In this document: in pieces, positions 24,392-64,000 of the stretch
Position numbering within the stretch: the first letter of the stretch is position 1
Layout: the number at the start of each line of letters is the position of its first letter
Source of the DNA: an uncultured Alphaproteobacteria bacterium
Lineage (GTDB): Bacteria > Pseudomonadota > Alphaproteobacteria > Rs-D84
DNA length: 64,000 bases
Direction: 5' to 3'
Assembly (NCBI GenBank): GCA_934232895.1
Contig: CAKQGH010000006.1
Location: 138 to 64,137 of the forward strand
Translations under genes and position numbers: made by a program
Notes under the pieces: generated by a model
Told to the model about the DNA's origin: nothing
Database searches by the model: none
What the model saw: the letters and a program-made list of their open reading frames with translations, nothing else

Positions 24392-24402
24392 AGGAAATTG
24401 CC

Positions 24403-24834: not shown

Positions 24835-24846
24835 CGGGGGACACCG

Positions 24847-25242: not shown

Positions 25243-25245
25243 ATT

Positions 25246-26951: not shown

Positions 26952-27164
26952 TTGTCATTCCTGCTCCGGGCCCCGCGGAATTGATAAATTCCGTGGGTGG
27001 GCAAAGGCAGGAATAGGGTCCATACAGTGCGAGTGACAACGAGCCAAACACAGAATGTTGCGGAATACGGTAATATTGGTATACGCCACCTTTTACCAAA
27101 TATTGTGCAACAACAAACAGAAGTAATTTTCAAGACCCTATTCCCGCCTGCGCGGGAATGACAA
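26952..27164 (-). mobile_element. MITE-like element copy 3 (inverted orientation) with a 42-nt hairpin insertion at 26965-27006
   Basis: The core is the reverse complement of the copy-1/2/4 core. The insertion sits in the loop of the opposite terminal hairpin compared with copy 1. Confidence 0.7.
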
Positions 27165-27516
27165 TGGAAAAATATCGTTTTTATTTTATGAACATAGTTC
27201 TCTTTTATGTTTCTTATGCCGTCACCCCGCCCTGGGCCCCACGAAATTGAAAATTTCGTGGGTGGTACTAGGTCGGGGTCTATTGCCCCGCAGGGACAAA
27301 AAGACGACACCCCGCACGCTACTGCGTGCACCCCTCTGGCCAGATGGGTTTGGTCTTTTCCATCGTGGTGGGGGCAAAATAACTGTATCACTCTATCACT
27401 TGCTCGCTTTTTCACTTTTCCGGTTCCCCTGCCCCGTGGTGATTGGAAATGTTGGAGTTGGACGTACATAATTGTCACTGGCGAAATCTTTTTTGTTTGT
27501 ATATACACATTTTTTC

Positions 27517-47033: not shown

Positions 47034-47067
47034 AAAACGCCGCCCCATTTACAGGGCGGCGTAATTT
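47032..47067. terminator. Hairpin terminator shared by giant gene 2 (+) and rnpB (-)
   Basis: CGCCGCCC-CATTTACA-GGGCGGCG. On the minus strand it is followed by TTTTTT. On the plus strand only TAATTT follows. Confidence 0.6.
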
Positions 47068-47390
47068 CAGATGCACGGTAAGCCGGATTCTGTCCTGCCC
47101 GGGGGCAGTCGTGAAACCGCCCGGGGGTAGTGAGCATAATTAATCTGCACCCGATGTTGCCACCGAATGTCAAGCCTTCTACCCGCCCCCATCCTGGGAC
47201 CGTCATCGGGGGCCTATTTGAAGTTGCTGCGCACAGAGATTGCCCGTTTCACTCGAATTAAATCGCTTCGTCACTGTTGCTCTAATCGTCGGATTGCTCC
47301 GCTCGGTATATTAGCCGATGTGCTGTCCCACGCAGTCCGGACTTTCCTCCGCCACCCGTGGGGATGGCGGCTATGCTCTGTGCATCTGTT
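47066..47390 (-). ncRNA. rnpB: RNase P RNA (bacterial type A), ~325 nt
   Basis: The minus strand carries GGAGGAAAGTCCGGACT (CR-I), AGCAACAG, CAAATAGG, GGGTAGAAGGCTTGA and ACAGAATCCGGCTTA (CR-V) in the canonical order. P1 pairs CAGATGCACAG (5', ~47388) with CCGTGCATCTG (3', ~47068). Overlapping track ORFs are artefacts. Confidence 0.9.
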
Positions 47391-47399: not shown

Positions 47400-48440
47400 T
47401 GTACCAGCATTTGTCAAAAATTCAACGGAAAAACGCATAAAAAAGAGAGCAAAGCGCATCCGTCTCCGCTGACGCTCCGCTGCGATAAAGAGAGCAGAGA
47501 GCAATGTTTTTATTCCATCATACCGGCGCCCGGGCCCCACGAAAATTTCAATTTCGTGGGTGGTACCCGGCCGGTATCCATTGCCCCGCAGGGACAAATA
47601 AAAAGACCACCCCGTCCGCTACGCGTCCACCCCGACCCGGGTCCCACAAAATTTCCAATTTTGTGGGTGATTCCCGGAGGGGAACTGAGTCCGCGACGGT
47701 ATTATGGGGCCCAGCATAAAAAGAATTGTCATTCCTGCGTAGGCAGGAATAGGGTCTTGGAAATTACTTCTGCTCGTTGTTGTACAATATTTGGCAAATG
47801 GTGGTGTATGCCAATATTACCTCATTCCGCAATATTCTGTGTTTGGCTCGTTGACACTCGCACTGTATAGTCTCTATTCCCGCCTGCGCAGGAATGACAA
47901 TTCTTTGTTTCCTGTCATTGCGCGCGGAGCGTGGCAATCCATAGACGGCACCACGCCCTGGCGGGCACCCCTCTGGCCAGAGGGGAACCTAGTCCGCAAC
48001 AGGTACATACTAAGTTCCCCTCCGGTGGAGGGGTGGCACGAAGTGCCGGGGTGGTCTTGAGAGTGCGTAATGTTGTATAAAAAGACCACCTCCCCCTTCG
48101 GGTACTCCTCCACAGGAGGAGAACTTGCTCCGCAACGGTGATAAAACAAATTCCCCTTCGCTGGGAAACCACCCACAAAATTTTCAATTTTGCGGGGTCT
48201 GGGTCGGGGTGGCACGAAGTGCCGGGGTAGTGGTAAATATGTCCCTGCGGGGCAATGGGCCCCGACCTGGTACCACCCACGGAATTTATCAATTCCGCGG
48301 GGCCCGGGTGTCGGGGTGACGATTTTTTTGTGCTATACCCTGCAATACTGTTGCTGGGCCCGGGTGTCGGTATGACGGTGCTTTCTTATGCCGTGGCCTG
48401 CGGGGTGTCGGATGGGTACCATATAGGCACCATTATTGTG
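47400..48440. repeat. 1-kb gene-free mosaic of palindromic repeat modules upstream of giant gene 3
   Basis: Contains a GAGAGCA-array element (47445-47505), hairpins at 47528-47565, 47640-47670, 48165-48200 and 48270-48305, and MITE-like copy 4. It also has GTCATTGCGCGCGGAGCGTGGCAATCC (47913-47939) and module copies at 48012-48128 and 48153-48266. It is partly colinear with 26336-26925. Confidence 0.8.
47726..47900 (+). mobile_element. MITE-like element copy 4 (uninterrupted, best-preserved termini)
   Basis: TTGTCATTCCTGCGTAGGCAGGAATAGGGTC ... GTCTCTATTCCCGCCTGCGCAGGAATGACAA. ~30-bp terminal inverted repeats, each itself a hairpin. Confidence 0.75.
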
Positions 48441-48509: not shown

Positions 48510-48539
48510 TTGCGATGGGTGGTGCATTTTTTCTATGAT
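48510..48539 (+). promoter_or_regulatory. Promoter candidate of giant gene 3 (TTGCGA-18 nt-TATGAT), homologous to 27517-27546
   Basis: Same conserved block as upstream of giant 1, with a T6 tract in the spacer (48527-48532). The in-frame ATG at 48535 lies inside this -10 element. Confidence 0.35.
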
Positions 48540-48573
48540 TACACCACAAAGGTCAGGAAAAGAGAATAAAGAA

Positions 48574-51500
48574 GTGGGAATTTTGTCCAGAAATCTGCGG
48601 TTTTTAGGTGCGATTTTTGTAATGGTGTTTGGCGCGTTGTTCGGCGCCCTGCCCGCGCGTGCTGTTTACATCGAATATGAAGATTGTACGAATGGCAGCG
48701 TGTGCACGGAAACCGCTTTGGACCAAAATGTTGCCCTGACATTTCCGTTGCCAAATGGTAATTGGGCCAGTCCTGGTTGGGCAGTGTTCTCCAAAGAGAT
48801 AAAACCAGCCTCGGTGTGTTTTGACAATGGCGACTATGGTGGTGCGATTGAATTGTATACATCCCAGATCGGTACCGTTTGGGTGTATTTACAATGTAAT
48901 GAAAGTACGGGTTATTATGATACTGTGTTCAGTCATACCCAGGCAGATGGTAATCAAAATTCCGAGCTTTCGTCCGGATGGGGCTATTTATCAGTTGGAC
49001 CAGGGTATTATGCCACGAGAGGCAATATATTCCTGATTGATCCATATGTGGGAAAATGGCTGGATTACTACGGCGATGTTGAGACTTGTGACGGCATGTG
49101 CGGTGATGGTGTAATTGTCGTGCGTGATGTTCAAAAGTGCCCAGCGGGCTATTATTGCCCTGGGGCGGGGCCATTTGTGCAACTGCTGTATAATGATGAG
49201 AATATTTATGGTCGGATAAAATGCCCCGATGGTACATACAGTGAACCCGGCGCGACCAGTGTGAATGATTGTGTCCCATATGAACAAGCGGATGATGGTG
49301 CCAAACAGTATTTGGCAACATGTGAATACACATACGACAATATGGATGCCAAAATATCCTGTAGAGAGGGCTTGGTACGGGACTGTTGGTGTAAGCTGGC
49401 CGAAGATGACACCAGCCAAGCTGTTTTGAATGATTGTAGTGCAGATGTGCAAGAAGATGGTAACGGCAATCGTTATTGTGTAGTTAATTATGTGGATATA
49501 GCGGATAGTACTTATCGTGCATATTGCCGCCCCAGCACGCGTGAGGAAGATGGTCGGTCCGAGGACGATACCCTGAATTCAGAGATTATTTATTGTGAGG
49601 CGCGGTTAAGTTCAAAGAGCGGCGCCACAAAATACTATGTAAAATATGATTTGAATGGCGGTATATGGCAAAACAGCGACACAACGGGCGTCACAAACTA
49701 TATTGACGATGGGTCTGGAAGTTGCAGCGACGAAGACCGTGTATATTTGGGCGAACCATATCGTGCAGACTGCACCTTTGACTATTGGATTGATGCTAAC
49801 CGCGACGACGATGAACCATTTAATGGCACCACAGATCCAGAAAAGAACCAGTATTTTTGCCCGGGCGATTTCCAGGGTGTGTCGGTTCGTGCAAAATGGT
49901 CTTGTGAACCCGGACTGACCAAGGCAGTGCGTGAATGCGCGGCCGGTGAATATTTGCCGGCGGGCCAGGATGATTGTGTGGTGTGTCCTCCAGATGGCAG
50001 TGGCGTATATTGCCCCGGTGGTGTTTTTGGCGCAATTGGCGACGGTGGATACACCGAAGACCAGGGACGTTTTGAATGTGCCATCGGTTCGTACGAGGAT
50101 GATGGAAACCTGGGCGATACGGGTGGTGTAAAACAATGCACGGCATGTGATGGTGGGTATACCACACCAAAGGCTGGTGCGCCGAATCATTATTCCTGTG
50201 ACACGTGCGACAACAATACCAGCGGCGTTTCGTCATGGGCGACCCCTGTTTGGAACAGTAATAATTATGTAAATAATTTGTGTCAGATATCCAGTTGCCA
50301 TACGGGGTACAAAAGCGTTACCGGAGATGGCGTTGATGGTCGATGTTCCATTATCACATACAGCATTACATACAACCTGAATGGTGGAAAAAATCCATCG
50401 GGCACGCGGACATCGTACAATGTTAAATCGTCGACATATACCCTGCCCACGCCGACAAAATCGGGATACACATTTGGCGGGTGGTACACGAATTCCGGTC
50501 TGACGGGAAATGCCGTGACAACAATTGCGGCTGGTTCGATCGGTAATAAAACTTTTTATGCCAAATGGACGGCCAATGGCATCACATGTGCGGCCGGGAA
50601 ATATTTACCAGCGAACAGCACAACATGCACCACCTGTCCAGCTGGGTCATATTGCCCGGGCGGAACATGGTCCCAATCGTCCAGTGCCCAGGGTTTAAAC
50701 ACATGTCCATCGTTTGGTGATGTTAACAGTAATTTTGACTCGTTGGTTGCTGGCGATAACTCTTGTATGGTAGATGGCGGTTTTGCACCAGATGTCACGG
50801 GAATTACCAGTAAAAGTGGATGTGTATATGATGCAACATGCGGGACCAAAGCAAGCTGGGTTGAACGTCGTGGGTTCAGTTCGGCCAGTGCGACATCGTA
50901 CGATAAATTGATTGGCACATACTATTTCGATGTTCCTGCGGGATACGGGTATTATATGAGTGGACCAACCACGAAATGTTTAAACACATTGGGTTCTGGC
51001 CCAAAAACGTCTGGTGTTGGGTACAGCACCCTAACCAAGTGTGAGACGGGGTATTACTGCCCGGGTGGTAATTCGTACGCTAACAGTGCGGTCACATGTG
51101 GCGGGACAAACAACCCACAAATCATTGGGCGTACCCAATGCCCCACCGGGTACACCAGTGCCGCCGGTGCGACCAGCGCCAGCGCATGTACCGCCGCAAC
51201 ATATAAAGTGACATTGGACAAGCAAAGTGGTACCGGCGGTACATCGGAGTATTATTATCAATATAACACCAAGGGTACATGCTATTACTACACCACATCG
51301 GCGCTTTCCACCTGTACCGACAGCAGTGACGGTCAGAATATTACCAAACCAACCCGCACCGGATATGATTTCAAGGGATATTACACTGGCACAGATGGCA
51401 CCGGCACACAGTATGTGAATGCCAGCGGTTTGGCCATAAATAACCTGTACAAAACCGCTGGCAATCGCACACTGTATGCGAACTGGTCACCAAAAACATG

Positions 51501-54500
51501 GTATGTGTATTTTTATGATGATGTAGCGGCTGGTGCGTGTAGCGGGTTTGTTGGTGTGTACTCTTTGGAATACGGAAATACAGCATCTGGTATTAATCAG
51601 CCGGATGGCTGTGAGTGGTATGATGACGATGGGTATTCAGTCATGCCAAAGGGTGATGCGCCAAATGGATACAGATTTGCCGGATGGTATACCGGCGAAA
51701 ACGGTACAGGAATTCAATTGACCGACGAAAACGGCCGAATCCTGGACAACGTATTTACTACCGATTTTGGCGACGACGGTGCGGAAATTGCTGCATACGC
51801 TAAATTTGTCCCCAATGTCACGCCGACATTTACCGTCACGGTAAAAACGACCGAGGCAAATACCGCGTTTTCGTTCAAACTGGCCGCAACCGGTACTTTC
51901 TATGTTGATTGGGGCGATGGCAGTGCCATGGAAACCATAACCAGAACGAACACCACACAAACCACATATTCACACACCTTTGCCACCGCCGGCACATATA
52001 CGGTTGGTTTTGCCGGCCGCGCAACCGGGTATGTCACACAACCCACATTGTCGGACAGTGCTTGTACATCGAATGCTGGAACTTCGGCCTGTGGCAATTC
52101 AATTCCGGCGTTTACATTACAGGGGATGGGTAAATACATATATGGCATGTCGGGTTCAATTGGGTCTATATTCCCAACATTGGCCAGTGGTGCCCAGCCC
52201 GGATTCCGTTTTGCATTCAGCAGTATCCAGGCAACATCAATTCCAGAAAATCTGTTCAGTGGTATTACTGGAACACCCACGGCGTGTATGTTCAATGATA
52301 CATTTTATGGTGCGAAAATTACATCGATTCCGGAAAATTTATTCCATGGTATCACCGGCACAGCCCCCGGGTTGTTCAGTGGTACATTCTGGGGGACGAA
52401 AATTACATCAATTCCGGCGGGGTTGTTTTCGACCATTACCGGAACACTGCAACCATATATGTTCGAGGCAACATTTATTGATACAACCGCAGTGACATCG
52501 GTGCCGGCGGGGCTGTTTGGTGGCGTGACCGGCGCGCCCGCCAGATGCGCATTCAAAGATACGTTCAGATCTGCCGAGGGCGTGACGGCGTTGCCCGCCA
52601 ATTTGTTCCCGAATTTAAGTGGTAAACCCGGGTACTATTCATTGAAAAATATGTTCGCGTTGGCCAGCAACCTGGCGGGCTATGTGCCGCAGACAATGTT
52701 TTCAAACCTGGACAGCACCGGTTACAGCGCGGGCCCAATGGACAGTATATTTGTCGATACCAAATTGGAAACAACATGCCCGGCGGGAAAATATCAATAC
52801 CTGACCGGATTCGAGGACGATTGGGAAAGTGGTATTGTGTGCAGTGACTGTGCCCAGACACCATATACCGATTCCGGTACCGACACCGAGACAATTACCA
52901 ACGGTTCGCGTTCACGCACAAAAACACGCAGTTGCTATAAAACCAGTGTTGCCGGCAACAAGGGCGGCATTGCGGCGTGCGATGCATCGACATCGTGTGG
53001 TGCGTATACGTACGGCGATTGGACATATACTTGCAATACCGGGTATCATTTGTCTGGCACAACATGCGTCGCAAATACGTATACGATAAAATACCAGTCC
53101 GGTGTAAATGGTGCCACTGTCTTAGGTACAATGCCAGATACAACCTGTACATACGATCAAGATTGCAAATTGGCGCCCAATGGATTTTCAATACATGAGA
53201 AATGGAAATTTATTGGTTGGTCCCGACAGATCTTGGCCGATGCGGAGTACGCAAATGGTGCCACTGTAAGGAATTTGACTAGCCGTAATGGTGGTACGGT
53301 ATATCTGTATGGCATATGGGAAGATTGTCCCGCGTGTAATGCGACTAATGCGAATTGCACCTTGACCGCGCCACTGGGTGTGTGCACATACACCACATCG
53401 TGCAAGACTGGTTACGGCAATATTCAAAACAACGGCGCGTACAATGCATCGTGCAGCGCCAGCACATACACCATTACATTGCGCGACTATGCGGACGCAA
53501 ATACGCACAGCACCATATACCAGGTCTATGGCAGTAAATATTACAGCGACACATCAACCGAAACCGCCATTACCAAGGCCACGGTGCCAACGCGCAGTGG
53601 GTACAAATTCCGCGGGTTCTATACCGTAAAGCAATCTGATTTGACCGGCAACGGCGGCAGTGGCACGCGCCGCATTACATCGGATGGTACCCTGCCTGGA
53701 AATACCACATTTACGGCCAGCACAAAACTGTATGCCGCATGGGCCCAGGATTGCACAACCCCGTCAAATGGTACCTGCAGTTTGACAATAAATACCGATG
53801 GCACCGCGACGTATACCGCGTCGTGTAACAGTGGGTACACTGTGTCGGGTGCAACCACCGCAACACCGTCATGCACCGCGAACACGTATACCGTCACATA
53901 CGCCGCAAATGGTGGCACGGGTTCGAACCAGACACAGTCTGTGACATATAAATCGTCGTTCACGACCAAGGCGTCAAGTACATTTACCCGCAGCGGTTAT
54001 ACATTCGCCGGATGGGGTGGTAATTATCCAAAATCGAACACGGCATACACATATACCACCACGGGCAACACAACGCTGAACGCCCAGTGGTGCCAGAACT
54101 GCGCATCGGTATCGAACGGCTCGTGCACATTGACCGTGAATGAAGCCACCGGTGCCTGCACATACACCACATCGTGCAATGCCGGATACACCATCAGCAA
54201 CAACGGTAAATACAACCCGACCTGCACCGCAAATACGTATACTGTTTCGTTCAATGCCAATGGCGGTTCCGGGGGCCAAAGCACATCGGTGACCGCAACA
54301 TACGGCGCGGCCATGCCGGCAATAAGCACCACCGCCCCAACCCGTACCGGATATACATTCGGTGGGTGGTATGACACCAGTGCGGCAACTGGCGGCACAC
54401 AGTACTATACCGCGGCGGGCGCATCGGCACGCAGTTGGAACAAAACCGCAAACACAACGTTGTATGCGCGGTGGACGGTTAAATCAATAAAATGTGCGGC

Positions 54501-57500
54501 TGGTAAATATTTACCGGCCGGCAAAGACGCATGCGCAACTTGCGTTGCGGGTTATGCTTGCGCGGGAGGCACATGGACATACGATGGTGACGAACATGGT
54601 CGCACCCAATGCACGGGTGCAACATACGCGGGTGCGGGCGCGACGCAGTGCACATCGTGCCCATCGCCATACACATACGACGTATCGGCCGGTAAGACCA
54701 AGATTGAACAATGCACGGTTCAGACCACGGCTGGGTCGTATATCAAAGATGCCAAGGGTGACAAAGTCTCATGCCCGACGGGATATTATTGCCCTAGCGC
54801 AGTAGTTGCATACGGTTCGACAAATTCGCCAACCGCGTGTCCGGCAATTGCGTCGCACACACCGACAACATGGCAATCAAATTATTATAACCCAACACCT
54901 GTATCCAGTGAGTTTACTAGTGCTGGTGGCGAAAGCATCGATCGTTGTGCGGTCACATATACACTGAAAAATGATCGTGGTACAATATCAACACTGAAGA
55001 TGTATAATCCAGAAACTGACAAGTATGATTATGGATGGCAAAATGATTATTACATGTTGTATATATCGTTAAATCCTGGCTATTACTTTACCAAAAAGTG
55101 GTCGGTTACTTTGAGTGATGGCGAACATACAATGTGCGATGAGTCCGCGGACAATCCAAAAATATACGTTGATGCCGCGCCATGTCCAGCGGGGTCGTAT
55201 TGCCCTGGTTATGTTGATAGTCTGGATATGAATGGCGGCACCCACCCAGATAGTTGGCCAAAATGCTCTGATGGTGAATATACTGACACCATGGGAATAT
55301 ATGCGTGCCCAACCACATATCCGAACAGTGCGGCAAAATCGAGTGCAATTGAACAGTGCTGGTTGACCACAACGGCGGGCAAATATGTTGCGACCGCACG
55401 CGCAGATCAGGTTCAGTGTTTGGCGAACAATTACTGTGCCGGCGGTACAACCGTGAACTATGGTTCAACCGGTGGTATGCAATCGTGTGCCACGGGGTAC
55501 GAAAGCGCAGCGGGCGCGTCCAGTTGCACGGCAACGACATACAGCATTACATATAACCTGAACGGTGGAACGAATGCTGCGGGCGCAAAAACATCGTATA
55601 CGATTGAAACGGCGGATTATACCCTGCCCACGCCGACCAAGACGGGATATACATTTGGTGGGTGGTATGAAAATTCTGGTTTAACTGGCAGTGCCGTGAC
55701 CAAAATAGCCAAGGGTTCAACGGGCAACAAAACATACTGGGCAAAATGGACCATCAAATCTGTGAACTGTGCGGCGGGTAAATATCTGCCGGCGAACAGC
55801 CTGACGTGCGGTGACTGTACGGCTGGGTACGCCTGTGCGGGTGGCACATATTCATACAGTTCCAGTACCCAGGGGCGCAGTGCCTGTACCGGTCGCACAA
55901 AGTACAGCGCGGCGGGCGCGGCATCGTGCAACACCGTCAGCAGCGGTTATTACACCACGGGCTGCAACAGCAGCAACAATAACTGCACCGGTCAAACACA
56001 ATGCACGGGTACAACATATTGCAGTGGTGGTGTTAAAAGCGACTGTCCGTCCGGATATACCGCAAACACGACCGCCGGCAAGACCGCCGCATCACAATGC
56101 ACAATCAGCGTTCCGGCTGGTAAGTACCTGGGCACCGCCAATGGTACAACCACCACGAGTTGCGCGGCGGGTACATACAAGGCCGCCCACACCGTAAACT
56201 ACGGCAGCACATCATCGTGCGGTGCCTGTACCGGTCGCACAAAGTACAGCGCATCGGGTGCGGCATCATGCAGCACCGTCAGCAGTGGTTATTACACCAC
56301 GGGCTGCAACACCAGTGGCAATAACTGTACCGGCCAATCCCAGTGTGACGGCGGTGTGTATTGCACCGGTGGTATTCAAAACGACTGTCCAACGGCAGAG
56401 ACAGGTTGGACCCAGGGTACTGGCAAGGGATGGAGTGCGGTGACAAGCTGCTTTGAAACCAAGGCCGCGACAAGCGTCAGCACATATTGCAGCGCTGGCC
56501 AATTAAAGAAAAATGCGACCAGCAGCACCGCATGGGGCACCAGCACCATCAGCACCGCATTACAGGCGAAAGCGGGTTCTTTTGTCAGTGGTCAGACATG
56601 TACGCAATGCACCGGTGCATCGTACAGCGCGGGTGGCACGGCGACCAGTTGTACATCGTGTCCGTCGGGTTATGCGGCGAACACCGATAATGGTAAAACT
56701 GCCGCAACACAGTGTGAAATTAGCATTGCCGCTGGTAAATACTTGGGTACGGCCAAGGGAGCAACCACAACCAGCTGTGCCGCCGGTACATACAAGGCCG
56801 CCCACAATGTCAGCTATGGCAGTACTTCATCATGCAGTGCATGTTCCGGTCGCACAAAGTACAGTGCGGCGGGCGCGGCATCGTGCAGCAATGTCGGCAG
56901 TGGTTATTACACAACTGGATGTGACACCAGCGGCAATAAATGTACCGGTCAAAAACAATGCACAAGTGGCACATGGTGCGCGGCCGGCGTAATGAACCAG
57001 TGCAGTTCGTTGGCTGGTGTATCGTCTGCGGGTGGTGTGTACAGTTCGGCGGTGGGCTCAACCGCAAACACGGCATGTAAATATACCGCACCAACCCAAA
57101 TCATAACCGGGTGTCTGAGTGTCATATCAAATACCGTGACATATACCGGTTCGGCGTGGCCCAAAACAACATACGAAGCCGATGCGGCCGCGGGATACAT
57201 TGTTGCCAACAATAACACGGCAGGCGCGACATGTACGCAATGCACCGGTGCAACATACAGTGCGGGCGGCCGTGCAACATCATGCACGGCGTGCCCGACG
57301 GGCTATACGGCGAATACCGATAATGGTAAATCCGCTGCGAGCCAGTGCACAATCAGCGTGACCGGTGGACATTATATTGGCACCGCGGGCCAAAACAGCA
57401 CCAATTGGGGTACTTGCGCGGCCGGTTCGTACAAGGCGGCCCACACCGTAAACTATGGCAGTACTTCTTCGTGCAGTGCCTGTACCGGACGCACAAAGTA

Positions 57501-60500
57501 CAGTGCATCGGGCGCGGCATCATGCAGCACGGTTTCAACCGGGTACTATACAACGGGTTGCAACACCAGCAATAATAACTGTACCGGTCAAAAACAATGC
57601 ACAAGTGGCACATGGTGCGCATCGGGTGTAATGAACCAGTGCAGCAGTCTGTCCGGTGTATCGGTTTCTGGTGGTACATATAGTTCGGCGGCGGGTTCAA
57701 CTGCGAACACGGCATGCAAATATACCGGACCGTCCAAGACACTGAGTGGGTGCAAAACGGTGACGACGAATACGGTGACCTATACTGGTACGGCATGGCC
57801 TGCAACGACCTATTCCGTGACGGCGAATGGTGGATATATTATAAGCAATAATAACCAAGCCGCCGCGGCGTGCACACAGTGCAGTGGTGCGGTATACAGC
57901 GCGGGCGGTACCGCAACATCATGTGCGGCGTGCCCATCTGCGGAATCTGGATGGACCCAGGGTACCGGCAAGGGATGGAGTGCGGTGACAAGCTGCTTTG
58001 AAACCAAGGCCGCAACCAGTGCCAGCACATATTGCAGCGCTGGTCAGTTAAAGAAAAATGCGACGAGCGCGACCGCGTGGGGCAACAGCACAATCAGCAC
58101 GGCATTACAGGCGAAACCAGGTTCAATCGTCAGCGGTCAAACCTGTACACAATGCAGTGGTGCAAAGTACAGCGCGGGTGGCACAGCAACCAGTTGCGCA
58201 TCATGTCCGGCGGCAACCAGTGGTTGGACACTTGGTACCGGTACCGGATGGAGTGCGGTGACGAGTTGCTATCAGACCAAGGCGGCAACCAGTGTCAGCA
58301 CATATTGCGCCGCGGGCCAGTTAAAACAAAACGCAACAAGCGCGACCGCATGGGGCAACAGTACCATCAGCACCGCATTGACCGCGAAACCTGGCGCAAT
58401 CGTCAGTGGTCAGACATGTACACAGTGCACAGGAACATCGTACAGTGCGGGCGGTACAGCAACATTATGTGAATTATGCCCGGATGGATATACAAACGAC
58501 ATCGGCAATGGCAAGACATCTGCCAGCCAGTGTGCAATCAGTGTCGACGGTGGGCACTATATTGGCACCGCGGGTCAAGACAGCACCAATTGGGGAACAT
58601 GCGCGGCGGGTACATACAAAGATATACATCTGGTGTACTATGGTAGTACATCATCGTGCAGTGCCTGCACCGGTCGCACAAAGTACAGCGCGTCGGGCGC
58701 ATCGGCATGCAGCACGGTTTCAAATGGATACTATACAACGGGTTGCAACACCAGCAATAATAACTGTACCGGTCAATCGCAATGCACAAGTGGCACATGG
58801 TGCGCATCGGGCGTGATGAATCAGTGCAGCAGTCTGACGGGTGTATCGGTTTCGGGGGGTACATATAGTTCGGCGGCGGGCTCTACCGCGAACACGGCGT
58901 GTAAGTATACCGGACCATCCAAGACACTGAGTGGATGCAAAACGGTGACGACGAATACCGTGACCTATACTGGTACGGCATGGCCAGCAACGACCTATTC
59001 CGTGACGGCAAATGGTGGATATATTATAAGCAATAATAACCAAGCCGCCGCGGCGTGCACACAGTGTGGCACCGGGAAATATAGCGCAGGTGGTACGGCT
59101 ACATCGTGTTCTTCTTGTCCGACGGCCGATTCTGGGTGGACCGCGACAGCGCCCGCCGGCAGCACATCGTACAGCGCATGCTATGAATACCAGACGCCGG
59201 CCAATTGCGCCAGTGGTTCGGTAAAGCGCACGGCAACCAGCGCGACCGCGTACGGCACCACCATTGCATTATTGAATAAATTGTCATCCAAGGCCGGGTA
59301 CTATGCATCAGCAACCGCAACATCATGCACAATTTGCCCAACAGGATCGTCCTGTGCGGCGGGGGCAACCGCTCCGATGGTGTGTGCAAATTGGACATAC
59401 GCGCCGAAGACCGGAATGTCGTCATGCACGGCGTGCCCGGCATTGACAACAGGATGGTCGAAATTTGACAGCAGTTCAGATGGCTGGAAATCGCACACCA
59501 TGTGCATCCAGGTCAGCCCGACCCCAGACAGTTGCAGCGCGGGTAATTTGAAACAGGTTGCATCGGCCGATGGCGCAACGACATGGGGCACTTCGTCGGT
59601 GAACACCGCGTTAAAGGCCACGGCTGGGAACTATGTCGCCGGCACATCTTGCACATCGTGCCGCGGTCTGGGTGGTGGGTTCTATCCAAACAGTGATGCC
59701 GATAATGCCGGTGGTGCGTCGGCATGCTATACGAATTCAATCAGCGGCGGATATGTTGCGTCGGCCACGGACCACCAAGCAACCGATTGTGCCGCCGGAA
59801 CATACAAAGGTGCACATACGGTTCACTTTGGCAGCACATCATCATGTGATTCCTGTATGGGACGCACGAAATACAGTGCGGCGGGTGCGTCGGCGTGCAG
59901 CACGGTTTCAACCGGGTACTATACAACCGGCTGTGACACCAGCAGCAATAAATGTACCGGCCAATCCCAATGCGATGGCAGTGTATACTGCACGGGCGGC
60001 GTTCAGAAAAATTGCCCGGCGGCGGAATCCAAATGGACGCTGGGCACCGGCAAGGGATGGAGTGCGATAACAAGTTGCTTTGAAACCATCCAGGTTGCAG
60101 ATGAAGTGCAATATTGCAGTGCCGGTCAATTAAAGAAAAACGCTACAACCGATGGTGCATGGCCAACAGTTGCAACAACCAGTGTTGCCATCCAGGCGAA
60201 ACCAGGTTCTGTTGTGGTCGGTCAATCTTGCGCACAGTGCAGTGGTGCATCATACAGCGCGGGCGGAACGGCGACACAATGTTCGTCTTGTCCGACGGCG
60301 ACCAGTGGTTGGACACGGAATACCGGCACCGGATGGAGCAAGGTTGAACAATGCAACCAGACCAAGACGGTTGGCGGGAACTGCGCCGCGGGTCAATTAA
60401 AACAAAATGCAACCAGCGCGACCGCATGGGGCGCCAGCACAATCAGCATTGCACTGTCGGCAAAACCGGGCGCATTTGTGAATGGTCAAACATGCAGCCA

Positions 60501-63500
60501 ATGCAACGGTGCGTTGTACAGCGCGGGTGGTACGGTGACATCGTGTTCTTCGTGCCCGACGGCCACCAGTGGTTGGACCATCAGCAGCGGTATTGGATGG
60601 ACCAAGGTTGAACAGTGCAACCAGACAAAGACTGTTGGCGGGTATTGCAGTGCGGGTGCACTGATTCAGAATGCAACCAGCTCGACCACATGGGGGACCA
60701 GTGAAATTCTGACAGAATTACAGGCGAAACCGGGCTCAATTGTCAGTGGTCAGACCTGTACACAGTGCAGTGGCGCAAAGTACAGCGCGGGTGGTACGGC
60801 AACCAGTTGCGCATCATGTCCGGCGGCAACCAGTGGATGGACACTTGGTACCGGTACCGGATGGAGTGCGGTGACGAGTTGCTATCAGACCAAGGCGGCA
60901 ACAAGTGTCAGCGCATATTGCGCCGCGGGCCAGTTAAAACAAAATGCAACCAGCGCGACAGCCTGGGGTACCAGCACCATCAGCACCGCATTGACCGCCA
61001 AGGCCGGTGCAATTGTGGATGGTCAGACATGTACACAGTGCAGTGGTGCAACATATTCTGGGGGTGGCGTGGTGACGCAATGCAGTGTATGCCCAACTGG
61101 ATACGATGCGAATATTGTCAATGGCAAAACAGCGGCATCACAGTGCCAGATAAAATGTTCTGCAAAGACAGTGGTCAGCATTGTCAACGGTTCATGTACT
61201 GCATTGACCACGGGCGGATATTACAAGGGTGAACACCTGGTGAACTATGGTTCAACAAGTTCGGCGGAACAATGTCCGGCGGGCTATCGTGATGGTGCGG
61301 TTGGCGCGGCGATAACCGATTGTGCAAAATCGGTTGCAGGTGGTAATTATGTGCGGACCGCAAAGGACGAAAACGCCAGCACTTGCGTGGCGGGAACATA
61401 TCGGACGGCGCACACGGTTACATACGGCAACACATCGTCATGCAGTGCCTGTAACGGTCGCACAAAGTACAGCGCGGCGGGCGCGGCATCGTGCAGCAAT
61501 GTTTCAACTGGGTACTATACAACCGGATGCAACACCAACAACAATAATTGTACCGGTCAATCCCAGTGCGATGGCAGTGTATATTGCACCGGCGGTATTC
61601 TGAATAATTGCCCAACGGCCGAGACTGGTTGGACCCAGGGTACCGGCAAGGGATGGAGCGTGGTGACAAGTTGTTTTGAAACCAAGGCGGCGACCAGCGT
61701 CAGCACATATTGCGCATCGGGCGTATTAAAGAAAAATGCGACCAGCGGCACCGCATGGGGCACCAGCACCATCAGCACCGCATTGACCGCCAAGGCCGGC
61801 GCAATTGTGGATGGTCAAACATGCACACAATGCAGTGGCGCATCGTACAGCGCCGGCGGCACGGCAACACTGTGTGAATTATGCCCGGCCGGGTACGAGG
61901 CAAACATTGGCAACGGTAAAACCGCGGCAACCCAATGTGAAATCAGTGTTGATGGTGGCCATTATATTGGTGCGGCGGGTCAAAACAGTACTAATTGGGG
62001 CACATGCGTCGCCGGTACATTCAAGGCAAACCATTTCGTGCGCTATGGCAATACATCATCGTGCGATGCATGTACAAGTCGCACAAAATACAGCGCAGCG
62101 GGCGCATCGGCGTGCAGCACCGTCAGCGGTGGTTATTACACCACGGGTTGCACGGGTGAAGACAAATGTACCGGTCAGGCGCAGTGCACAAGTGGCACAT
62201 GGTGCGCATCGGGCGTGATGAATCAGTGCAGCAGCCTGTCCGGTGTATCGGTTTCGGGTGGTTCGTATAGTTCGGCGACGGGATCAACCGCGAATACTGC
62301 ATGTAAGTATACCGGTCCATTACAGATAATTGATGGTTGTTCCTATGTCACGCCGAATACTGTGACATATACGGGTACAACATGGCCAGAATCAACATAT
62401 ATGGTTGATGCAATGCCTGGGTGGTATGTGGTTGGCGACAACACAGCCGATGCGACTTGCAAACAGTGCAGTGGTGCAGTATACAGCGCGGGTGGCAAGG
62501 CAACATCGTGTGCGTCATGCCCGTCGGCGACCAGTGGTTGGACACGGAACACCGGCACCGGATGGAGCAAGGTTGAACAATGCAATCAAACCAAAACGGT
62601 CGGCGGATATTGCAGTGCGGGTGAATTAAAACAAAATGCAACGAGCGCGACCGCGTGGGGCACCAGCACCATCAGCGTTCCATTACAGGCCAAGGCGGGT
62701 TCCATTGTCAGCGGCCAAACATGTGCCCAGTGCAGTGGCGCAAAATACAGCGCGGGTGGCACCGTGACCAGTTGTACCGCATGCCCAACGGCGGATACCG
62801 GTTGGACATTGGGTACGGGCACCGGATGGACATCGTACAGTGCGTGCTATGAATATCAAACACCGACTAATTGTGCCAGTGGTTCGGTCAAACGCGTGGC
62901 ATCGGATGCGTCGGCGTACAGTGCAACCATTACATTGCGCAACACATTGTCATCCAAGGCCGGATACTATGCATCCACAACCGCAACATCGTGCACAATT
63001 TGTCCAAAGGGTTCGTCTTGCGCGGCGGGCGCGGTAAATCCAACGGCATGTGCGAATTGGACCTTTGCCGATAAAACGGGAATGTCGTCATGCACATCGT
63101 GCCCAAGCGTCACAAGTGGATGGAGCAAATCCAACACGACCGGCACCGGGTGGACATCGTACAGCCAGTGTCAGCAAACAACGGGCACGCCGGAACACTG
63201 TGTGTCGGGCGGACTGAAACAAACCGCAACCAGCAGCACCACATGGGGCGCCAGCACCGTGAATGTGGCCCTGTCGGCGGATGCGGGATATTATGTAAAT
63301 GGCACCGCGTGTTCAATTTGCACTGGGGCAACATACTCGGGTGGTGGCACATTGACCAAGTGTGACGAATGCCCAACCATTTACACGCACAATACAACAG
63401 ATGGCAAAATCCATATTGATCAATGCCAGGCAAAAACAACCGCGGGTAAATACATCAAAACGGAAAATGATGATATGGAAACGGTTTGCGCGGCTGGTGG

Positions 63501-64000
63501 ATATTGTGCGGGTGGCACAATCGTGAACTGGGGTGGTACTGGTGGACGCACATTATGCACGGCGGGCACATACAACCCGAACACTGGGTCAAGCCTGGCC
63601 ACGGCATGTGTTAAATCAGACGCCGGATATTATGTTGGCACCAATGGTGCAACCGCACAAACGGCATGCACGGGCGCAACATATACCGACACGACTGGCG
63701 CCACCAAATGCACCACATGCCCAACGGCAACCAAGTACGCAGATGCATTAGCACAGTATTCGTATTACAATACTGGCACAATTGGTGACCACACGACCAA
63801 GACCAAATGCCAGGCGGTGTTTAATTCCACAATTGATCATGGAACATTGGTAAATGATGCGTGCTATTTGGGTTCGGACGATGATTACGGTACCAGCACC
63901 AGCAGCGGCGCATCGACATGCTGGTTGTTAAAGGATGGTCTGAGCTGTGATGGTGGGTATTATAATAAATCACAGTACGCGGCAACTCGTGCGACGGTAT
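48574..64000 (+). CDS. Giant secreted Cys-rich mosaic protein 3, 3'-truncated by the window (>5,140 aa): Flg_new repeats, CxxC repeats, VDWGDG domain plus LRR-like repeats, long array of novel Cys-rich modules
   Basis: It is not in the ORF track because it has no stop inside the window. After 48535, every plus-strand track ORF lies in one of the other two frames. I translated the remaining frame without stops at 48535-48700, 51781-52800, 55801-56760 and 63523-64000. GTG 48574 follows GGAAAAGAG (alternative ATG 48535). Signal peptide (M)GILSRNLRFLGAIFVMVFGALFGALPARA. By homology with giant 2 the stop is expected ~317 nt beyond the window. Confidence 0.85.
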   Translation, partial: MGILSRNLRFLGAIFVMVFGALFGALPARAVYIEYEDCTNGSVCTETALDQNVALTFPLPNGNWASPGWAVFSKEIKPASVCFDNGDYGGAIELYTSQIGTVWVYLQCNESTGYYDTVFSHTQADGNQNSELSSGWGYLSVGPGYYATRGNIFLIDPYVGKWLDYYGDVETCDGMCGDGVIVVRDVQKCPAGYYCPGAGPFVQLLYNDENIYGRIKCPDGTYSEPGATSVNDCVPYEQADDGAKQYLATCEYTYDNMDAKISCREGLVRDCWCKLAEDDTSQAVLNDCSADVQEDGNGNRYCVVNYVDIADSTYRAYCRPSTREEDGRSEDDTLNSEIIYCEARLSSKSGATKYYVKYDLNGGIWQNSDTTGVTNYIDDGSGSCSDEDRVYLGEPYRADCTFDYWIDANRDDDEPFNGTTDPEKNQYFCPGDFQGVSVRAKWSCEPGLTKAVRECAAGEYLPAGQDDCVVCPPDGSGVYCPGGVFGAIGDGGYTEDQGRFECAIGSYEDDGNLGDTGGVKQCTACDGGYTTPKAGAPNHYSCDTCDNNTSGVSSWATPVWNSNNYVNNLCQISSCHTGYKSVTGDGVDGRCSIITYSITYNLNGGKNPSGTRTSYNVKSSTYTLPTPTKSGYTFGGWYTNSGLTGNAVTTIAAGSIGNKTFYAKWTANGITCAAGKYLPANSTTCTTCPAGSYCPGGTWSQSSSAQGLNTCPSFGDVNSNFDSLVAGDNSCMVDGGFAPDVTGITSKSGCVYDATCGTKASWVERRGFSSASATSYDKLIGTYYFDVPAGYGYYMSGPTTKCLNTLGSGPKTSGVGYSTLTKCETGYYCPGGNSYANSAVTCGGTNNPQIIGRTQCPTGYTSAAGATSASACTAATYKVTLDKQSGTGGTSEYYYQYNTKGTCYYYTTSALSTCTDSSDGQNITKPTRTGYDFKGYYTGTDGTGTQYVNASGLAINNLYKTAGNRTLYANWSPKTWYVYFYDDVAAGACSGFVGVYSLEYGNTASGINQPDGCEWYDDDGYSVMPKGDAPNGYRFAGWYTGENGTGIQLTDENGRILDNVFTTDFGDDGAEIAAYAKFVPNVTPTFTVTVKTTEANTAFSFKLAATGTFYVDWGDGSAMETITRTNTTQTTYSHTFATAGTYTVGFAGRATGYVTQPTLSDSACTSNAGTSACGNSIPAFTLQGMGKYIYGMSGSIGSIFPTLASGAQPGFRFAFSSIQATSIPENLFSGITGTPTACMFNDTFYGAKITSIPENLFHGITGTAPGLFSGTFWGTKITSIPAGLFSTITGTLQPYMFEATFIDTTAVTSVPAGLFGGVTGAPARCAFKDTFRSAEGVTALPANLFPNLSGKPGYYSLKNMFALASNLAGYVPQTMFSNLDSTGYSAGPMDSIFVDTKLETTCPAGKYQYLTGFEDDWESGIVCSDCAQTPYTDSGTDTETITNGSRSRTKTRSCYKTSVAGNKGGIAACDASTSCGAYTYGDWTYTCNTGYHLSGTTCVANTYTIKYQSGVNGATVLGTMPDTTCTYDQDCKLAPNGFSIHEKWKFIGWSRQILADAEYANGATVRNLTSRNGGTVYLYGIWEDCPACNATNANCTLTAPLGVCTYTTSCKTGYGNIQNNGAYNASCSASTYTITLRDYADANTHSTIYQVYGSKYYSDTSTETAITKATVPTRSGYKFRGFYTVKQSDLTGNGGSGTRRITSDGTLPGNTTFTASTKLYAAWAQDCTTPSNGTCSLTINTDGTATYTASCNSGYTVSGATTATPSCTANTYTVTYAANGGTGSNQTQSVTYKSSFTTKASSTFTRSGYTFAGWGGNYPKSNTAYTYTTTGNTTLNAQWCQNCASVSNGSCTLTVNEATGACTYTTSCNAGYTISNNGKYNPTCTANTYTVSFNANGGSGGQSTSVTATYGAAMPAISTTAPTRTGYTFGGWYDTSAATGGTQYYTAAGASARSWNKTANTTLYARWTVKSIKCAAGKYLPAGKDACATCVAGYACAGGTWTYDGDEHGRTQCTGATYAGAGATQCTSCPSPYTYDVSAGKTKIEQCTVQTTAGSYIKDAKGDKVSCPTGYYCPSAVVAYGSTNSPTACPAIASHTPTTWQSNYYNPTPVSSEFTSAGGESIDRCAVTYTLKNDRGTISTLKMYNPETDKYDYGWQNDYYMLYISLNPGYYFTKKWSVTLSDGEHTMCDESADNPKIYVDAAPCPAGSYCPGYVDSLDMNGGTHPDSWPKCSDGEYTDTMGIYACPTTYPNSAAKSSAIEQCWLTTTAGKYVATARADQVQCLANNYCAGGTTVNYGSTGGMQSCATGYESAAGASSCTATTYSITYNLNGGTNAAGAKTSYTIETADYTLPTPTKTGYTFGGWYENSGLTGSAVTKIAKGSTGNKTYWAKWTIKSVNCAAGKYLPANSLTCGDCTAGYACAGGTYSYSSSTQGRSACTGRTKYSAAGAASCNTVSSGYYTTGCNSSNNNCTGQTQCTGTTYCSGGVKSDCPSGYTANTTAGKTAASQCTISVPAGKYLGTANGTTTTSCAAGTYKAAHTVNYGSTSSCGACTGRTKYSASGAASCSTVSSGYYTTGCNTSGNNCTGQSQCDGGVYCTGGIQNDCPTAETGWTQGTGKGWSAVTSCFETKAATSVSTYCSAGQLKKNATSSTAWGTSTISTALQAKAGSFVSGQTCTQCTGASYSAGGTATSCTSCPSGYAANTDNGKTAATQCEISIAAGKYLGTAKGATTTSCAAGTYKAAHNVSYGSTSSCSACSGRTKYSAAGAASCSNVGSGYYTTGCDTSGNKCTGQKQCTSGTWCAAGVMNQCSSLAGVSSAGGVYSSAVGSTANTACKYTAPTQIITGCLSVISNTVTYTGSAWPKTTYEADAAAGYIVANNNTAGATCTQCTGATYSAGGRATSCTACPTGYTANTDNGKSAASQCTISVTGGHYIGTAGQNSTNWGTCAAGSYKAAHTVNYGSTSSCSACTGRTKYSASGAASCSTVSTGYYTTGCNTSNNNCTGQKQCTSGTWCASGVMNQCSSLSGVSVSGGTYSSAAGSTANTACKYTGPSKTLSGCKTVTTNTVTYTGTAWPATTYSVTANGGYIISNNNQAAAACTQCSGAVYSAGGTATSCAACPSAESGWTQGTGKGWSAVTSCFETKAATSASTYCSAGQLKKNATSATAWGNSTISTALQAKPGSIVSGQTCTQCSGAKYSAGGTATSCASCPAATSGWTLGTGTGWSAVTSCYQTKAATSVSTYCAAGQLKQNATSATAWGNSTISTALTAKPGAIVSGQTCTQCTGTSYSAGGTATLCELCPDGYTNDIGNGKTSASQCAISVDGGHYIGTAGQDSTNWGTCAAGTYKDIHLVYYGSTSSCSACTGRTKYSASGASACSTVSNGYYTTGCNTSNNNCTGQSQCTSGTWCASGVMNQCSSLTGVSVSGGTYSSAAGSTANTACKYTGPSKTLSGCKTVTTNTVTYTGTAWPATTYSVTANGGYIISNNNQAAAACTQCGTGKYSAGGTATSCSSCPTADSGWTATAPAGSTSYSACYEYQTPANCASGSVKRTATSATAYGTTIALLNKLSSKAGYYASATATSCTICPTGSSCAAGATAPMVCANWTYAPKTGMSSCTACPALTTGWSKFDSSSDGWKSHTMCIQVSPTPDSCSAGNLKQVASADGATTWGTSSVNTALKATAGNYVAGTSCTSCRGLGGGFYPNSDADNAGGASACYTNSISGGYVASATDHQATDCAAGTYKGAHTVHFGSTSSCDSCMGRTKYSAAGASACSTVSTGYYTTGCDTSSNKCTGQSQCDGSVYCTGGVQKNCPAAESKWTLGTGKGWSAITSCFETIQVADEVQYCSAGQLKKNATTDGAWPTVATTSVAIQAKPGSVVVGQSCAQCSGASYSAGGTATQCSSCPTATSGWTRNTGTGWSKVEQCNQTKTVGGNCAAGQLKQNATSATAWGASTISIALSAKPGAFVNGQTCSQCNGALYSAGGTVTSCSSCPTATSGWTISSGIGWTKVEQCNQTKTVGGYCSAGALIQNATSSTTWGTSEILTELQAKPGSIVSGQTCTQCSGAKYSAGGTATSCASCPAATSGWTLGTGTGWSAVTSCYQTKAATSVSAYCAAGQLKQNATSATAWGTSTISTALTAKAGAIVDGQTCTQCSGATYSGGGVVTQCSVCPTGYDANIVNGKTAASQCQIKCSAKTVVSIVNGSCTALTTGGYYKGEHLVNYGSTSSAEQCPAGYRDGAVGAAITDCAKSVAGGNYVRTAKDENASTCVAGTYRTAHTVTYGNTSSCSACNGRTKYSAAGAASCSNVSTGYYTTGCNTNNNNCTGQSQCDGSVYCTGGILNNCPTAETGWTQGTGKGWSVVTSCFETKAATSVSTYCASGVLKKNATSGTAWGTSTISTALTAKAGAIVDGQTCTQCSGASYSAGGTATLCELCPAGYEANIGNGKTAATQCEISVDGGHYIGAAGQNSTNWGTCVAGTFKANHFVRYGNTSSCDACTSRTKYSAAGASACSTVSGGYYTTGCTGEDKCTGQAQCTSGTWCASGVMNQCSSLSGVSVSGGSYSSATGSTANTACKYTGPLQIIDGCSYVTPNTVTYTGTTWPESTYMVDAMPGWYVVGDNTADATCKQCSGAVYSAGGKATSCASCPSATSGWTRNTGTGWSKVEQCNQTKTVGGYCSAGELKQNATSATAWGTSTISVPLQAKAGSIVSGQTCAQCSGAKYSAGGTVTSCTACPTADTGWTLGTGTGWTSYSACYEYQTPTNCASGSVKRVASDASAYSATITLRNTLSSKAGYYASTTATSCTICPKGSSCAAGAVNPTACANWTFADKTGMSSCTSCPSVTSGWSKSNTTGTGWTSYSQCQQTTGTPEHCVSGGLKQTATSSTTWGASTVNVALSADAGYYVNGTACSICTGATYSGGGTLTKCDECPTIYTHNTTDGKIHIDQCQAKTTAGKYIKTENDDMETVCAAGGYCAGGTIVNWGGTGGRTLCTAGTYNPNTGSSLATACVKSDAGYYVGTNGATAQTACTGATYTDTTGATKCTTCPTATKYADALAQYSYYNTGTIGDHTTKTKCQAVFNSTIDHGTLVNDACYLGSDDDYGTSTSSGASTCWLLKDGLSCDGGYYNKSQYAATRATV
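52204..52752 (+). repeat. Five to six tandem 26-32-aa LRR-like repeats inside giant 3 (F..TF.g.kITSIPenLF.GiTG...)
   Basis: Direct translation gives FRFAFSSIQATSIPENLFSGITGTPTACM / FNDTFYGAKITSIPENLFHGITGTAPGL / FSGTFWGTKITSIPAGLFSTITGTLQPYM / FEATFIDTTAVTSVPAGLFGGVTGAPARCA / FKDTFRSAEGVTALPANLFPNLSGKP... Confidence 0.7.
56395..63330 (+). repeat. Array of ~13 copies of a ~85-aa Cys-rich module (SGWT.GTG.GWS...C..TK...YC.AG.LK.NATS.T.WG...GQTC.QC.G..YSAGG...SC..CP), interleaved with CTGRTKYSA.GA.SC and other CxxC units
   Basis: Module landmarks (K/Q-N-A-T codons or variants) lie near 56509, 58061, 58332, 59233, 59565, 60135, 60403, 60668, 60942, 61733, 62632, 62890 and 63215. I translated one copy fully (56395-56650). 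Confidence 0.7.
63523..64000 (+). repeat. Near-identical copy of the giant-2 C-terminal region (46239-46716)
   Basis: Constant offset of 17,284 nt with only a handful of mismatches in 478 nt. Out-of-frame track ORFs 46249-46467 and 63533-63751 differ at 2 of 72 residues. Confidence 0.9.

Follow-up and report, generated by a model that had tools for sequence, protein, structure and literature searches.

Thirteen copies of a cysteine-rich module in a giant, putatively exported protein of an uncultured gut alphaproteobacterium

The stretch of DNA considered here (the window) comprises 64,000 nucleotides of contig CAKQGH010000006.1, positions 138 to 64,137 of the forward strand, from the assembly GCA_934232895.1 of an uncultured member of the Alphaproteobacteria (lineage Rs-D84). 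It contains three very long open frames on the + strand, the tandem paralogues g1, g2 and g3, and the distal half of g3 carries an array of a cysteine-rich repeat, here called module A. Module A is a real domain, previously undescribed and narrowly distributed. It probably has a structural or a binding function, as a repeat in a giant, disulfide-bonded surface protein that is exported through Sec and may be an adhesin. An earlier account of the same DNA, made from its letters alone (the preliminary description), had drawn attention to an N-A-T-S motif in the module and to the idea that it could be glycosylated; glycosylation of module A is unsupported.

The module A array

Searching g3 with a regular expression, combined with alignment in MAFFT, yields exactly 13 copies of module A between nucleotides 56386 and 63381, with periods of 89-108 aa. 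The copies follow the pattern CP..(S/T)GW..GTG.GW...C....C.AG.LK.NATS..WG....L.AK.G..V.GQTC.QC.G..YSAGGT.T.C..CP. Nine of the 13 contain NAT[ST], and the other four have KRTATS, KQVASA, KRVASD or KQTATS at this point. The number of cysteines per period is even in every copy of the window (6, 8 or 4). Identity to copy 1 is 41-89% at the protein level, and DNA identity is 60-89%, which marks the copies as old duplications and not as assembly artefacts. Repetition of this kind is far beyond chance. The copies are as follows.

56386-56664, + strand: module A copy 1, 93 aa, KKNATS, 6 Cys
57931-58209, + strand: module A copy 2, 93 aa, KKNATS
58204-58482, + strand: module A copy 3, 93 aa, KQNATS; modelled with its flanks as 58141-58494 (predicted local distance difference test, pLDDT, 93.9)
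59116-59439, + strand: module A copy 4, 108 aa, KRTATS, 8 Cys, C-terminal cysteine unit extended
59434-59700, + strand: module A copy 5, 89 aa, KQVASA, 4 Cys, without the terminal CxxCP
60013-60294, + strand: module A copy 6, 94 aa, KKNATT
60289-60558, + strand: module A copy 7, 90 aa, KQNATS
60553-60822, + strand: module A copy 8, 90 aa, IQNATS
60817-61095, + strand: module A copy 9, 93 aa, KQNATS
61609-61887, + strand: module A copy 10, 93 aa, KKNATS
62518-62787, + strand: module A copy 11, 90 aa, KQNATS
62782-63105, + strand: module A copy 12, 108 aa, KRVASD, 8 Cys
63100-63381, + strand: module A copy 13, 94 aa, KQTATS

Module A does not stand alone. Four types of module are combined in the C-terminal half of g3, A (~91 aa, 13 copies), B (~53 aa, 8 copies), C (~99 aa, 4 copies) and D (~61 aa); B is always followed by an A, C or D-type unit. 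Module B has the pattern CTGRTKYSA.GA.SC..VS.GYYTTGC; the regular expression C.[GS]RTKYS...GYYTTGC finds it eight times in g3 and once in g2, a gene that contains no module A. Module C, with the pattern CSSL.GVS...NTVTYTG.AWP, has NTVTYTG.AWP where module A has NATS..WG. Comparison of the two by hhalign gives a probability of 98.3% (E 2.7e-14 over 89 columns), indicating that module C is a divergent module A and that g3 holds 17 units of the superfamily.

55885-56043, + strand: module B copy 1
56227-56385, + strand: module B copy 2
56842-57000, + strand: module B copy 3
57481-57639, + strand: module B copy 4
58666-58824, + strand: module B copy 5
59854-60012, + strand: module B copy 6
61450-61608, + strand: module B copy 7
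62071-62226, + strand: module B copy 8
57001-57297, + strand: module C copy 1, divergent module A paralogue, NTVTYTGSAWP
57640-57936, + strand: module C copy 2
58825-59121, + strand: module C copy 3
62227-62523, + strand: module C copy 4

These counts agree with the preliminary description, which had reported about 13 copies of a cysteine-rich module, nine with N-A-T-(S/T) and four with K(R/Q)(T/V)A(T/S) variants, interleaved with at least eight CTGRTKYSA units. It had placed the array at 56395-63330. The array does lie there, its true extent being slightly wider, and two of the eight module B copies in g3 are found just upstream of 56395.

Distribution and conservation of the module A family

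A hidden Markov model (HMM) built from the 13 copies, a step which the preliminary description had proposed, was searched exhaustively against 1.84 billion cluster representatives. It matched 128 proteins at E<=1e-3, 104 of them at <=1e-10 and 36 at <=1e-30. Nearly all of the 128 match profile positions 1-90, and most are proteins of 1000-4500 aa with several copies each. A word-indexed homology search with the 13-copy alignment returned zero matches. Homologues bear no other name than 'hypothetical protein, partial', given in a metagenome-assembled genome (MAG) of a Rickettsiales bacterium and in Candidatus Enterousia sp.

A separate genome scan for module A loci used 8 close copies, and its results are biased towards close relatives. 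It recovered 15 loci, 14 of which come from gut MAGs (human Hadza, chicken, roe deer and others) labelled as uncultured Alphaproteobacteria, 'Rickettsiales' or Candidatus Enterousia. The remaining locus (L015, CAVGNU010000030.1), a 3093-nt contig with 45% identity in a 'Bacteroides fragilis' bin, is probably a mis-binned contaminant.

Conservation was assessed on 170 full-length copies taken from the HMM-matched proteins. Cysteines at HMM positions 1, 22, 32, 69, 72, 86 and 89 are 82-100% conserved, and G7, W8, G15, G35, A41, W47, A58, G61 and V64 are 78-95% conserved. Compared with an orthologue of g3 (locus L002), dN/dS is 0.16 in module A, 0.26 elsewhere and 0.22 overall. Such low values place module A under purifying selection; if anything, it is the most constrained part of g3.

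Relationship to described cysteine-rich domains

No family was found at E<=0.1 in a Pfam-A scan of 56395-63999, and neither NCBIfam nor a PDB sequence search gave a significant match for module A. Single modules of the window reach 12-14 bits (E 0.07-0.16) against TNFR_ELAPOR1_6th and Ephrin_rec_like, restricted to the last ~25 residues. When 40 diverse copies of the family were compared with Pfam, 23 weakly matched PF07699 Ephrin_rec_like (best 5e-5), 20 matched PF23091 TNFR_ELAPOR1_6th, in the terminal CxxC region, and 11 matched NCD3G. The gathering cutoff of PF07699 is 23.1 bits. The homologue P0144 scores 33.1 bits at residues 89-134, which correspond to the end of one module and the start of the next, and a significant Ephrin_rec_like match (32.1 bits) is present in g1. 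A precomputed match of one homologue to PF26010 (DUF8003) was merely 'faint', and this family was set aside.

The cysteine spacing CxxC...G.Y...G...CxxCP is present in module A, with invariant C69, C72, C86, C89, P90, Y77, G80 and G81, followed by G7 and W8 of the next unit. Judged by these residues, the last ~25 aa and the first ~22 aa of module A make up what reads as one cysteine unit of Ephrin_rec_like/TNFR type, split across the repeat boundary. For the central insert of ~47 aa (HMM ~22-69), no match was obtained in Pfam-A, NCBIfam, PDB sequences or PDB folds. The view that the module is undescribed therefore holds insofar as Pfam, NCBIfam and PDB offer no significant match, and has to be qualified at its ends, which are recognisable as an Ephrin_rec_like/TNFR-type unit. 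A significant Pfam match had been named as grounds for refuting novelty; none is significant in the window copies, and that of P0144 covers the module junction only.

Two structure predictions were made with AlphaFold2. The 13 window copies alone, in the frame of the preliminary description, gave a pLDDT of 82.5 with five models that disagree, and Foldseek found no match for this model in the PDB. The second prediction covered 118 aa, including the preceding CxxC unit, and used a 31-sequence alignment of window copies and homologues; it reached a pLDDT of 93.9 and a predicted template modelling score (pTM) of 0.80, with all five models above 91. The predicted fold is all-beta, and its main feature is a long hairpin with strands at residues 56-67 and 75-82. 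N64-A65-T66-S67 would end the first of these strands, and the tip would be A-T-A-W-G-N-S. The preliminary description had called for a prediction of this kind.

With the second model, the top Foldseek matches in the PDB are, with few exceptions, the cysteine-rich domains (CRDs) of EphA2/EphB/EphA4, EphB6, 4-1BB, OX40, TNFR2 and the Cys-rich domain of CaSR. They align over 34-66 columns, the best having E 0.37 and a probability of 0.93 over 66 columns, with TM-scores of at most 0.46; nothing was found at E<=0.001.

Module A resembles Ephrin_rec_like (PF07699, formerly GCC2_GCC3) and the TNFR CRDs (PF23091; PF00020 TNFR_c6) in having the unit CxxC-x-G-x-Y-S-x-GG-x3-CxxCP-x4-G-(W/F/Y), which makes up the two ends of its period, in the above-threshold matches of P0144 and g1 and, for g3 presumptively, in an extracellular setting. 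It differs from them in the beta-hairpin insert, which has its own conserved cysteine and a W-G tip and is without counterpart in these families. In the literature, PF07699 is treated as an essentially eukaryotic domain whose rare bacterial occurrences have been ascribed to horizontal transfer (PMC6993872), whereas here dozens of such units form the giant proteins of a bacterium.

The NATS motif

The preliminary description had regarded the conserved sequon of module A as a possible glycosylation site, or else as a structural turn. HMM position 40 corresponds to the N of NATS; among the 170 copies, threonine (35%) is commoner there than asparagine (26%), and tyrosine is found in 8%. The residues beside it are conserved (A41 in 81%, S43 in 74%; also L37 and W47). 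Serine or threonine occupies the +2 position in 40 of the 45 copies with N at position 40, compared to 78 of the 125 (62%) without it. Because S/T at +2 is common regardless of N, an N at this position makes a sequon almost by default. At -2, the 45 copies with N have K (32), Q (6), R (3), T (2), I (1) or S (1), and never D or E; in the NAT copies of the window, -2 to +2 reads K-[KQ]-N-A-T, apart from one copy with IQNATS. The PglB sequon is extended, D/E-X-N-X-S/T, with an acidic residue at -2, and NATS does not fit it.

Counts of N-x-S/T were also compared with composition-preserving shuffles. There is no enrichment in g1, g2 or g3 (z -0.9 to +0.7). The 170 family copies contain 260 such sites against 180+-11 in shuffles, spread over at least six columns, an excess that is not readable as a probability because the copies are related by descent. 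In the same copies, S/T stands at +2 more often after N than after any other residue (probability 0.41, compared to 0.29 overall).

These results bear on the proposal that NAT[ST] is a functional N-glycosylation site, modified either by a cytoplasmic HMW1C-like enzyme prior to export or by a periplasmic oligosaccharyltransferase, so that g3 would form a glycan-coated fibre. The recurrence of the motif at the same position in nine copies, its retention in an orthologue of 82% identity, its predicted place on the hairpin near the tip, where position 40 is probably exposed, and the surplus of sequons and of S/T following N in the family are all consistent with it. They are set against the predominance of T over N at this position, a family excess inflated by shared descent, a -2 residue that is most often K and never acidic, and the lack of enrichment in whole g1-g3. 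In addition, no glycosyltransferase was found among the open reading frames (ORFs) of the window or beside homologous genes on three other contigs; the preliminary description had suggested that N-glycosyltransferase genes be sought in the genome. Taken together, N-glycosylation of NATS appears decidedly unlikely. NATS is better seen as the version, in the lineage of the window, of a variable position in the first hairpin strand and not as a conserved sequon. A structural element is accordingly the better of the two original readings, with the difference that NATS is predicted to be a beta-strand next to the hairpin tip and not the turn itself.

The giant proteins

The genes that carry or accompany the array, and two features of their products, are listed below.

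27568-37752, + strand: g1 (giant gene 1), 3394 aa, paralogue with a putative signal peptide and seven Flg_new repeats, without module A
37902-47033, + strand: g2 (giant gene 2), 3043 aa, paralogue with a putative signal peptide and Flg_new repeats
48535-64000 and beyond the window end, + strand: g3 (giant gene 3), more than 5155 aa
48535-48663, + strand: putative Sec signal peptide of g3, MITPQRSGKENKEVGILSRNLRFLGAIFVMVFGALFGALPARA, read by eye, with the same N-terminus in the orthologue P0129
46650-47030, + strand: conserved C-terminal domain of g2, ~115 aa, GAGYW..SGLTTIGYGAGADEAGDCGRIL...YLRS..KTTPSLNV...YYGN...RV..G.TYSV.DDSM

The frame of g3 is open from 48427 to the window end, with a start M at 48535 that gives the same N-terminus as in P0129. 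Inspected by eye, the N-termini of g1, g2 and g3 are basic, then hydrophobic, and have A-x-A at the end, consistent with Sec signal peptides. Two proteins, P0001 (3460 aa) and P0129 (5567 aa), are collinear orthologues of g3, with 82% identity across the last 2000 aa; from this collinearity ~212 C-terminal residues of g3 lie outside the window. The ends of g3 and its orthologues are collinear, and in the middle the order and number of modules differ. The cysteine content of g3 is about 6%. In searches of Pfam-A and NCBIfam, Flg_new repeats (PF09479 / TIGR02543, List_Bact_rpt) are confined to its N-terminal half (aa 645-2440), with none in 56395-63999.

Two further observations concern the N-terminal half of g3. 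At aa ~1160-1440 (~51900-52750, + strand) there is a ~24-aa periodicity (IPENLF.GITGT...) that resembles, by eye, BspA-type leucine-rich repeats, and Pfam gives no match for it at E<=0.1. A tRNA-Tyr of 101 nt called by ARAGORN at 51090-51190 (- strand), within the coding sequence of g3, was not confirmed by Rfam and is probably a false positive.

The C-terminal domain with which g2 terminates is conserved in the family, where its consensus is GAGYW..SGLTTIG.GAGADEAGDCGR[IV]L....YLRS.KKTTPSLN....[FY]YGN....R[IV]..GG.TYSV.DDSM. It is present in 68 of the 128 module A proteins, within 15 residues of the end in 59 and followed by an extra 100-190 aa in 9. It is found at the C-termini of P0001, P0129, P0144 and P0147; in the g3 orthologues it precedes a beta-rich tail of ~108 aa. 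No relative of this domain was found in Pfam, NCBIfam or PDB. It is a second undescribed domain and a candidate sorting or anchoring element.

A proposed role for module A and its alternatives

A paired-cysteine beta domain on an Eph/TNFR-like scaffold, in a protein with a putative signal peptide and extracellular-type domains, points to a repeat that is stabilised by disulfides and belongs to a giant fibre or adhesin of the cell surface. A secreted or surface setting is further suggested by the Flg_new repeats, known from surface proteins, and by the conserved C-terminal domain of 68 of the 128 carriers. According to this model, each period of ~91 aa would consist of one Eph/TNF-receptor-type cysteine unit (CxxC-G-Y-S-GG-CxxCP-GW-G-G-C), and the ~47-aa insert within it would fold as a long beta-hairpin (C..G.L..xA.S..WG / ....L.A..G..V). 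Thirteen A and four divergent C units, strung together with the cysteine-rich modules B and D, would make up the distal half of a protein of ~5400 aa. This protein would leave the cytoplasm by way of Sec and be oxidised once outside. Most likely it would be presented at the cell surface, as a fibre or adhesin that is long, rigid and resistant to proteases. The hairpin insert would then be its likely variable or binding surface. The carrier, a relative of Candidatus Enterousia in the order Rs-D84, is probably dependent on a partner cell. The repeat, its family, a fold predicted with high confidence, purifying selection, the taxonomic setting and the lack of database matches are established by the analysis, whereas the disulfides, the display at the surface and a role in adhesion or structure are inferred.

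Several points weigh against this model. The Foldseek matches to Eph/TNFR CRDs are statistically not significant, and the window copies fall under the PF07699 cutoff (12-14 compared to 23.1 bits). The excess of N-x-S/T in the family leaves some room for selection of sequons, as weak residual support for glycosylation. The signal peptide was judged by eye. Finally, a folded giant protein would have to cross the outer membrane, and the C-terminal domain has no known relatives.

Two groups of known surface proteins are comparable with g3. The giant repeat adhesins of Gram-negative bacteria and reduced-genome symbionts (HMW1; the Flg_new surface proteins of Listeria and Bacteroides) are likewise very large, with signal peptides and tandem modular repeats; Flg_new is shared with the N-terminal half of g3, and their carriers are host- or partner-associated. 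The ~6% cysteine and the presumed disulfide-ladder architecture of g3 are unusual for bacterial adhesins, however, and its C-terminal domain is unique. No features of autotransporters, two-partner secretion, type I secretion/repeats-in-toxin (RTX) proteins or LPXTG proteins were detected by Pfam or NCBIfam. The variant surface proteins (VSPs) of Giardia and the immobilisation antigens of ciliates form CXXC-rich surface coats that undergo antigenic or phase variation. Like g3, they have periodic CxxC-rich extracellular repeats, rich in Thr, Ser, Gly and Ala, and paralogous gene copies. Unlike them, g3 has no Pfam VSP match, no transmembrane-CRGKA tail and no evidence of switching, and has a different C-terminal domain and a bacterial carrier.

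This likeness bears on the possibility that recombination within the array generates a variable surface coat, modules being shuffled among copies and among the three tandem giant genes. The giants are indeed tandem paralogues whose repeats share up to 87-89% DNA identity over 300 nt, the middle of the protein departs from the orthologues in the order and number of its modules while the ends are collinear, a relative has a shorter version at the same tolA-secA site, and repeat-rich DNA lies upstream of g1 and g3. Such a coat is nevertheless unlikely, since a dN/dS of 0.16-0.26 signifies purifying and not diversifying selection, the last 2000 aa are collinear and 82% identical with the orthologue, the inverted repeats upstream are copies of elements dispersed elsewhere in the window, and the window contains no recombinase. 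Alternatively, the CxxC...CxxC pairs could bind metal, as zinc-ribbon or rubredoxin-like knuckles, or heme, as in cytochrome c, in place of forming disulfides. The CxxC-x12-13-CxxC spacing is like that of zinc ribbons, single copies weakly match Zn_ribbon families, and a PDB sequence search weakly matched the CxxCH region of the cytochrome c CcoP (E 0.01). The domain E-value of that match is ~1 and the motif, C-[TS]-Q-C-[STN]-G, has no His after CxxC (as in CTQCSG), so cytochrome c was rejected. Metal binding in general seems extremely improbable for a protein with a putative signal peptide, in which Ephrin_rec_like/TNFR matches recur (20-23 of 40 copies), zinc-ribbon matches are single and the fold matches are disulfide-laddered CRDs.

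A more far-reaching interpretation would combine several of these elements: the three giants (~35 kb, several per cent of a ~1 Mb genome) would be the attachment apparatus of a gut alphaproteobacterium obligately dependent on a partner, built as a disulfide-laddered fibre of eukaryote-type Eph/TNFR CRDs, possibly acquired from a eukaryotic host or a gut protist, with module A as a lineage-specific ligand-binding hairpin N-glycosylated at NATS in this lineage. If true, Alphaproteobacteria would have two things not known from them so far, a system for N-glycoproteins and a receptor-like array that mimics the host. In this full form it is very unlikely. A disulfide-bonded repeat of a giant surface protein remains the preferred explanation of module A.

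Genomic setting and organism

The window belongs to a 295-kb contig of a metagenome assembly in ENA. The neighbours of the giants in the window are ordinary proteobacterial housekeeping genes, including tig, argS, rpsA, adk, a two-component pair and ruvB-ybgC-tolQ-tolR. Synteny extends from the last group (22485-26013) through g1-g3: ruvB-ybgC-tolQ-tolR and a tolA-like gene are followed by one or more cysteine-rich surface protein genes and then, in relatives, by secA. Two relatives (loci L018 and L019) have in the tolQRA-secA interval only a version of 550-613 aa and small ORF fragments, compared to the ~35 kb of giants here, indicating a conserved site that has expanded in this genome.

Other features lie in intergenic DNA. 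The g2-g3 spacer contains rnpB, the bacterial class A RNase P RNA, at 47063-47389 (- strand; Rfam 179 bits, E 2.7e-56). Dispersed intergenic repeats occur at 227-1039, 11089-11443, 26041-27334 and 47442-48378 as units of ~160 and ~350 nt, 74-94% identical and in both orientations. The 1.5-kb non-coding regions ahead of g1 and g3 are filled with such units and, as a result, contain long imperfect inverted repeats. These repeats look like miniature inverted-repeat transposable elements or repetitive extragenic palindromes and not like dedicated invertons, and are unusual in a reduced-genome lineage. Inverted repeats of 70-150 nt ahead of g1 and g3 raised the possibility of invertible promoters, which was rejected because these repeats are copies of the elements also present at 227-1039 and 11089-11443.

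Two genes of the 23S_rRNA_IVP family (four-helix-bundle, bAvd-like) are found at 5291-5710 (- strand) and 24847-25230 (+ strand), the second between tolR and the tolA-like gene. Diversification by a diversity-generating retroelement, which such ORFs could indicate, was set aside as unlikely, there being no reverse transcriptase in the window and a low dN/dS. Three adjacent ORFs of 554, 419 and 301 aa (1525-5304 and 5730-6710, both - strand) have signal-peptide-like N-termini and no Pfam match, and adjoin a gene for a prepilin (type IV leader) peptidase A24. They may belong to a pilus or to a type II secretion-like machinery with a part in exporting the giants.

Enterousia belongs to the order Rs-D84, whose members have genomes of ~0.75-1.6 Mb and lack the TCA (tricarboxylic acid) cycle and respiration; an obligate life as symbionts or parasites on other cells has been proposed for them (PMC12306168).

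Significance

Module A defines a new domain family, with ~128 cluster representatives out of 1.84 billion proteins. So far the family has been met only in giant, putatively secreted proteins of uncultured gut Alphaproteobacteria with reduced genomes (Enterousia and Rs-D84 relatives). A new Pfam or NCBIfam entry could be founded on module A, and another on the conserved C-terminal domain. A giant repeat surface protein with a new repeat is in itself a familiar category. It is unusual that reduced-genome gut bacteria should build very large proteins from a cysteine-rich scaffold usually regarded as eukaryotic, and in organisms thought to live off partner cells the giants are obvious candidates for attachment machinery.

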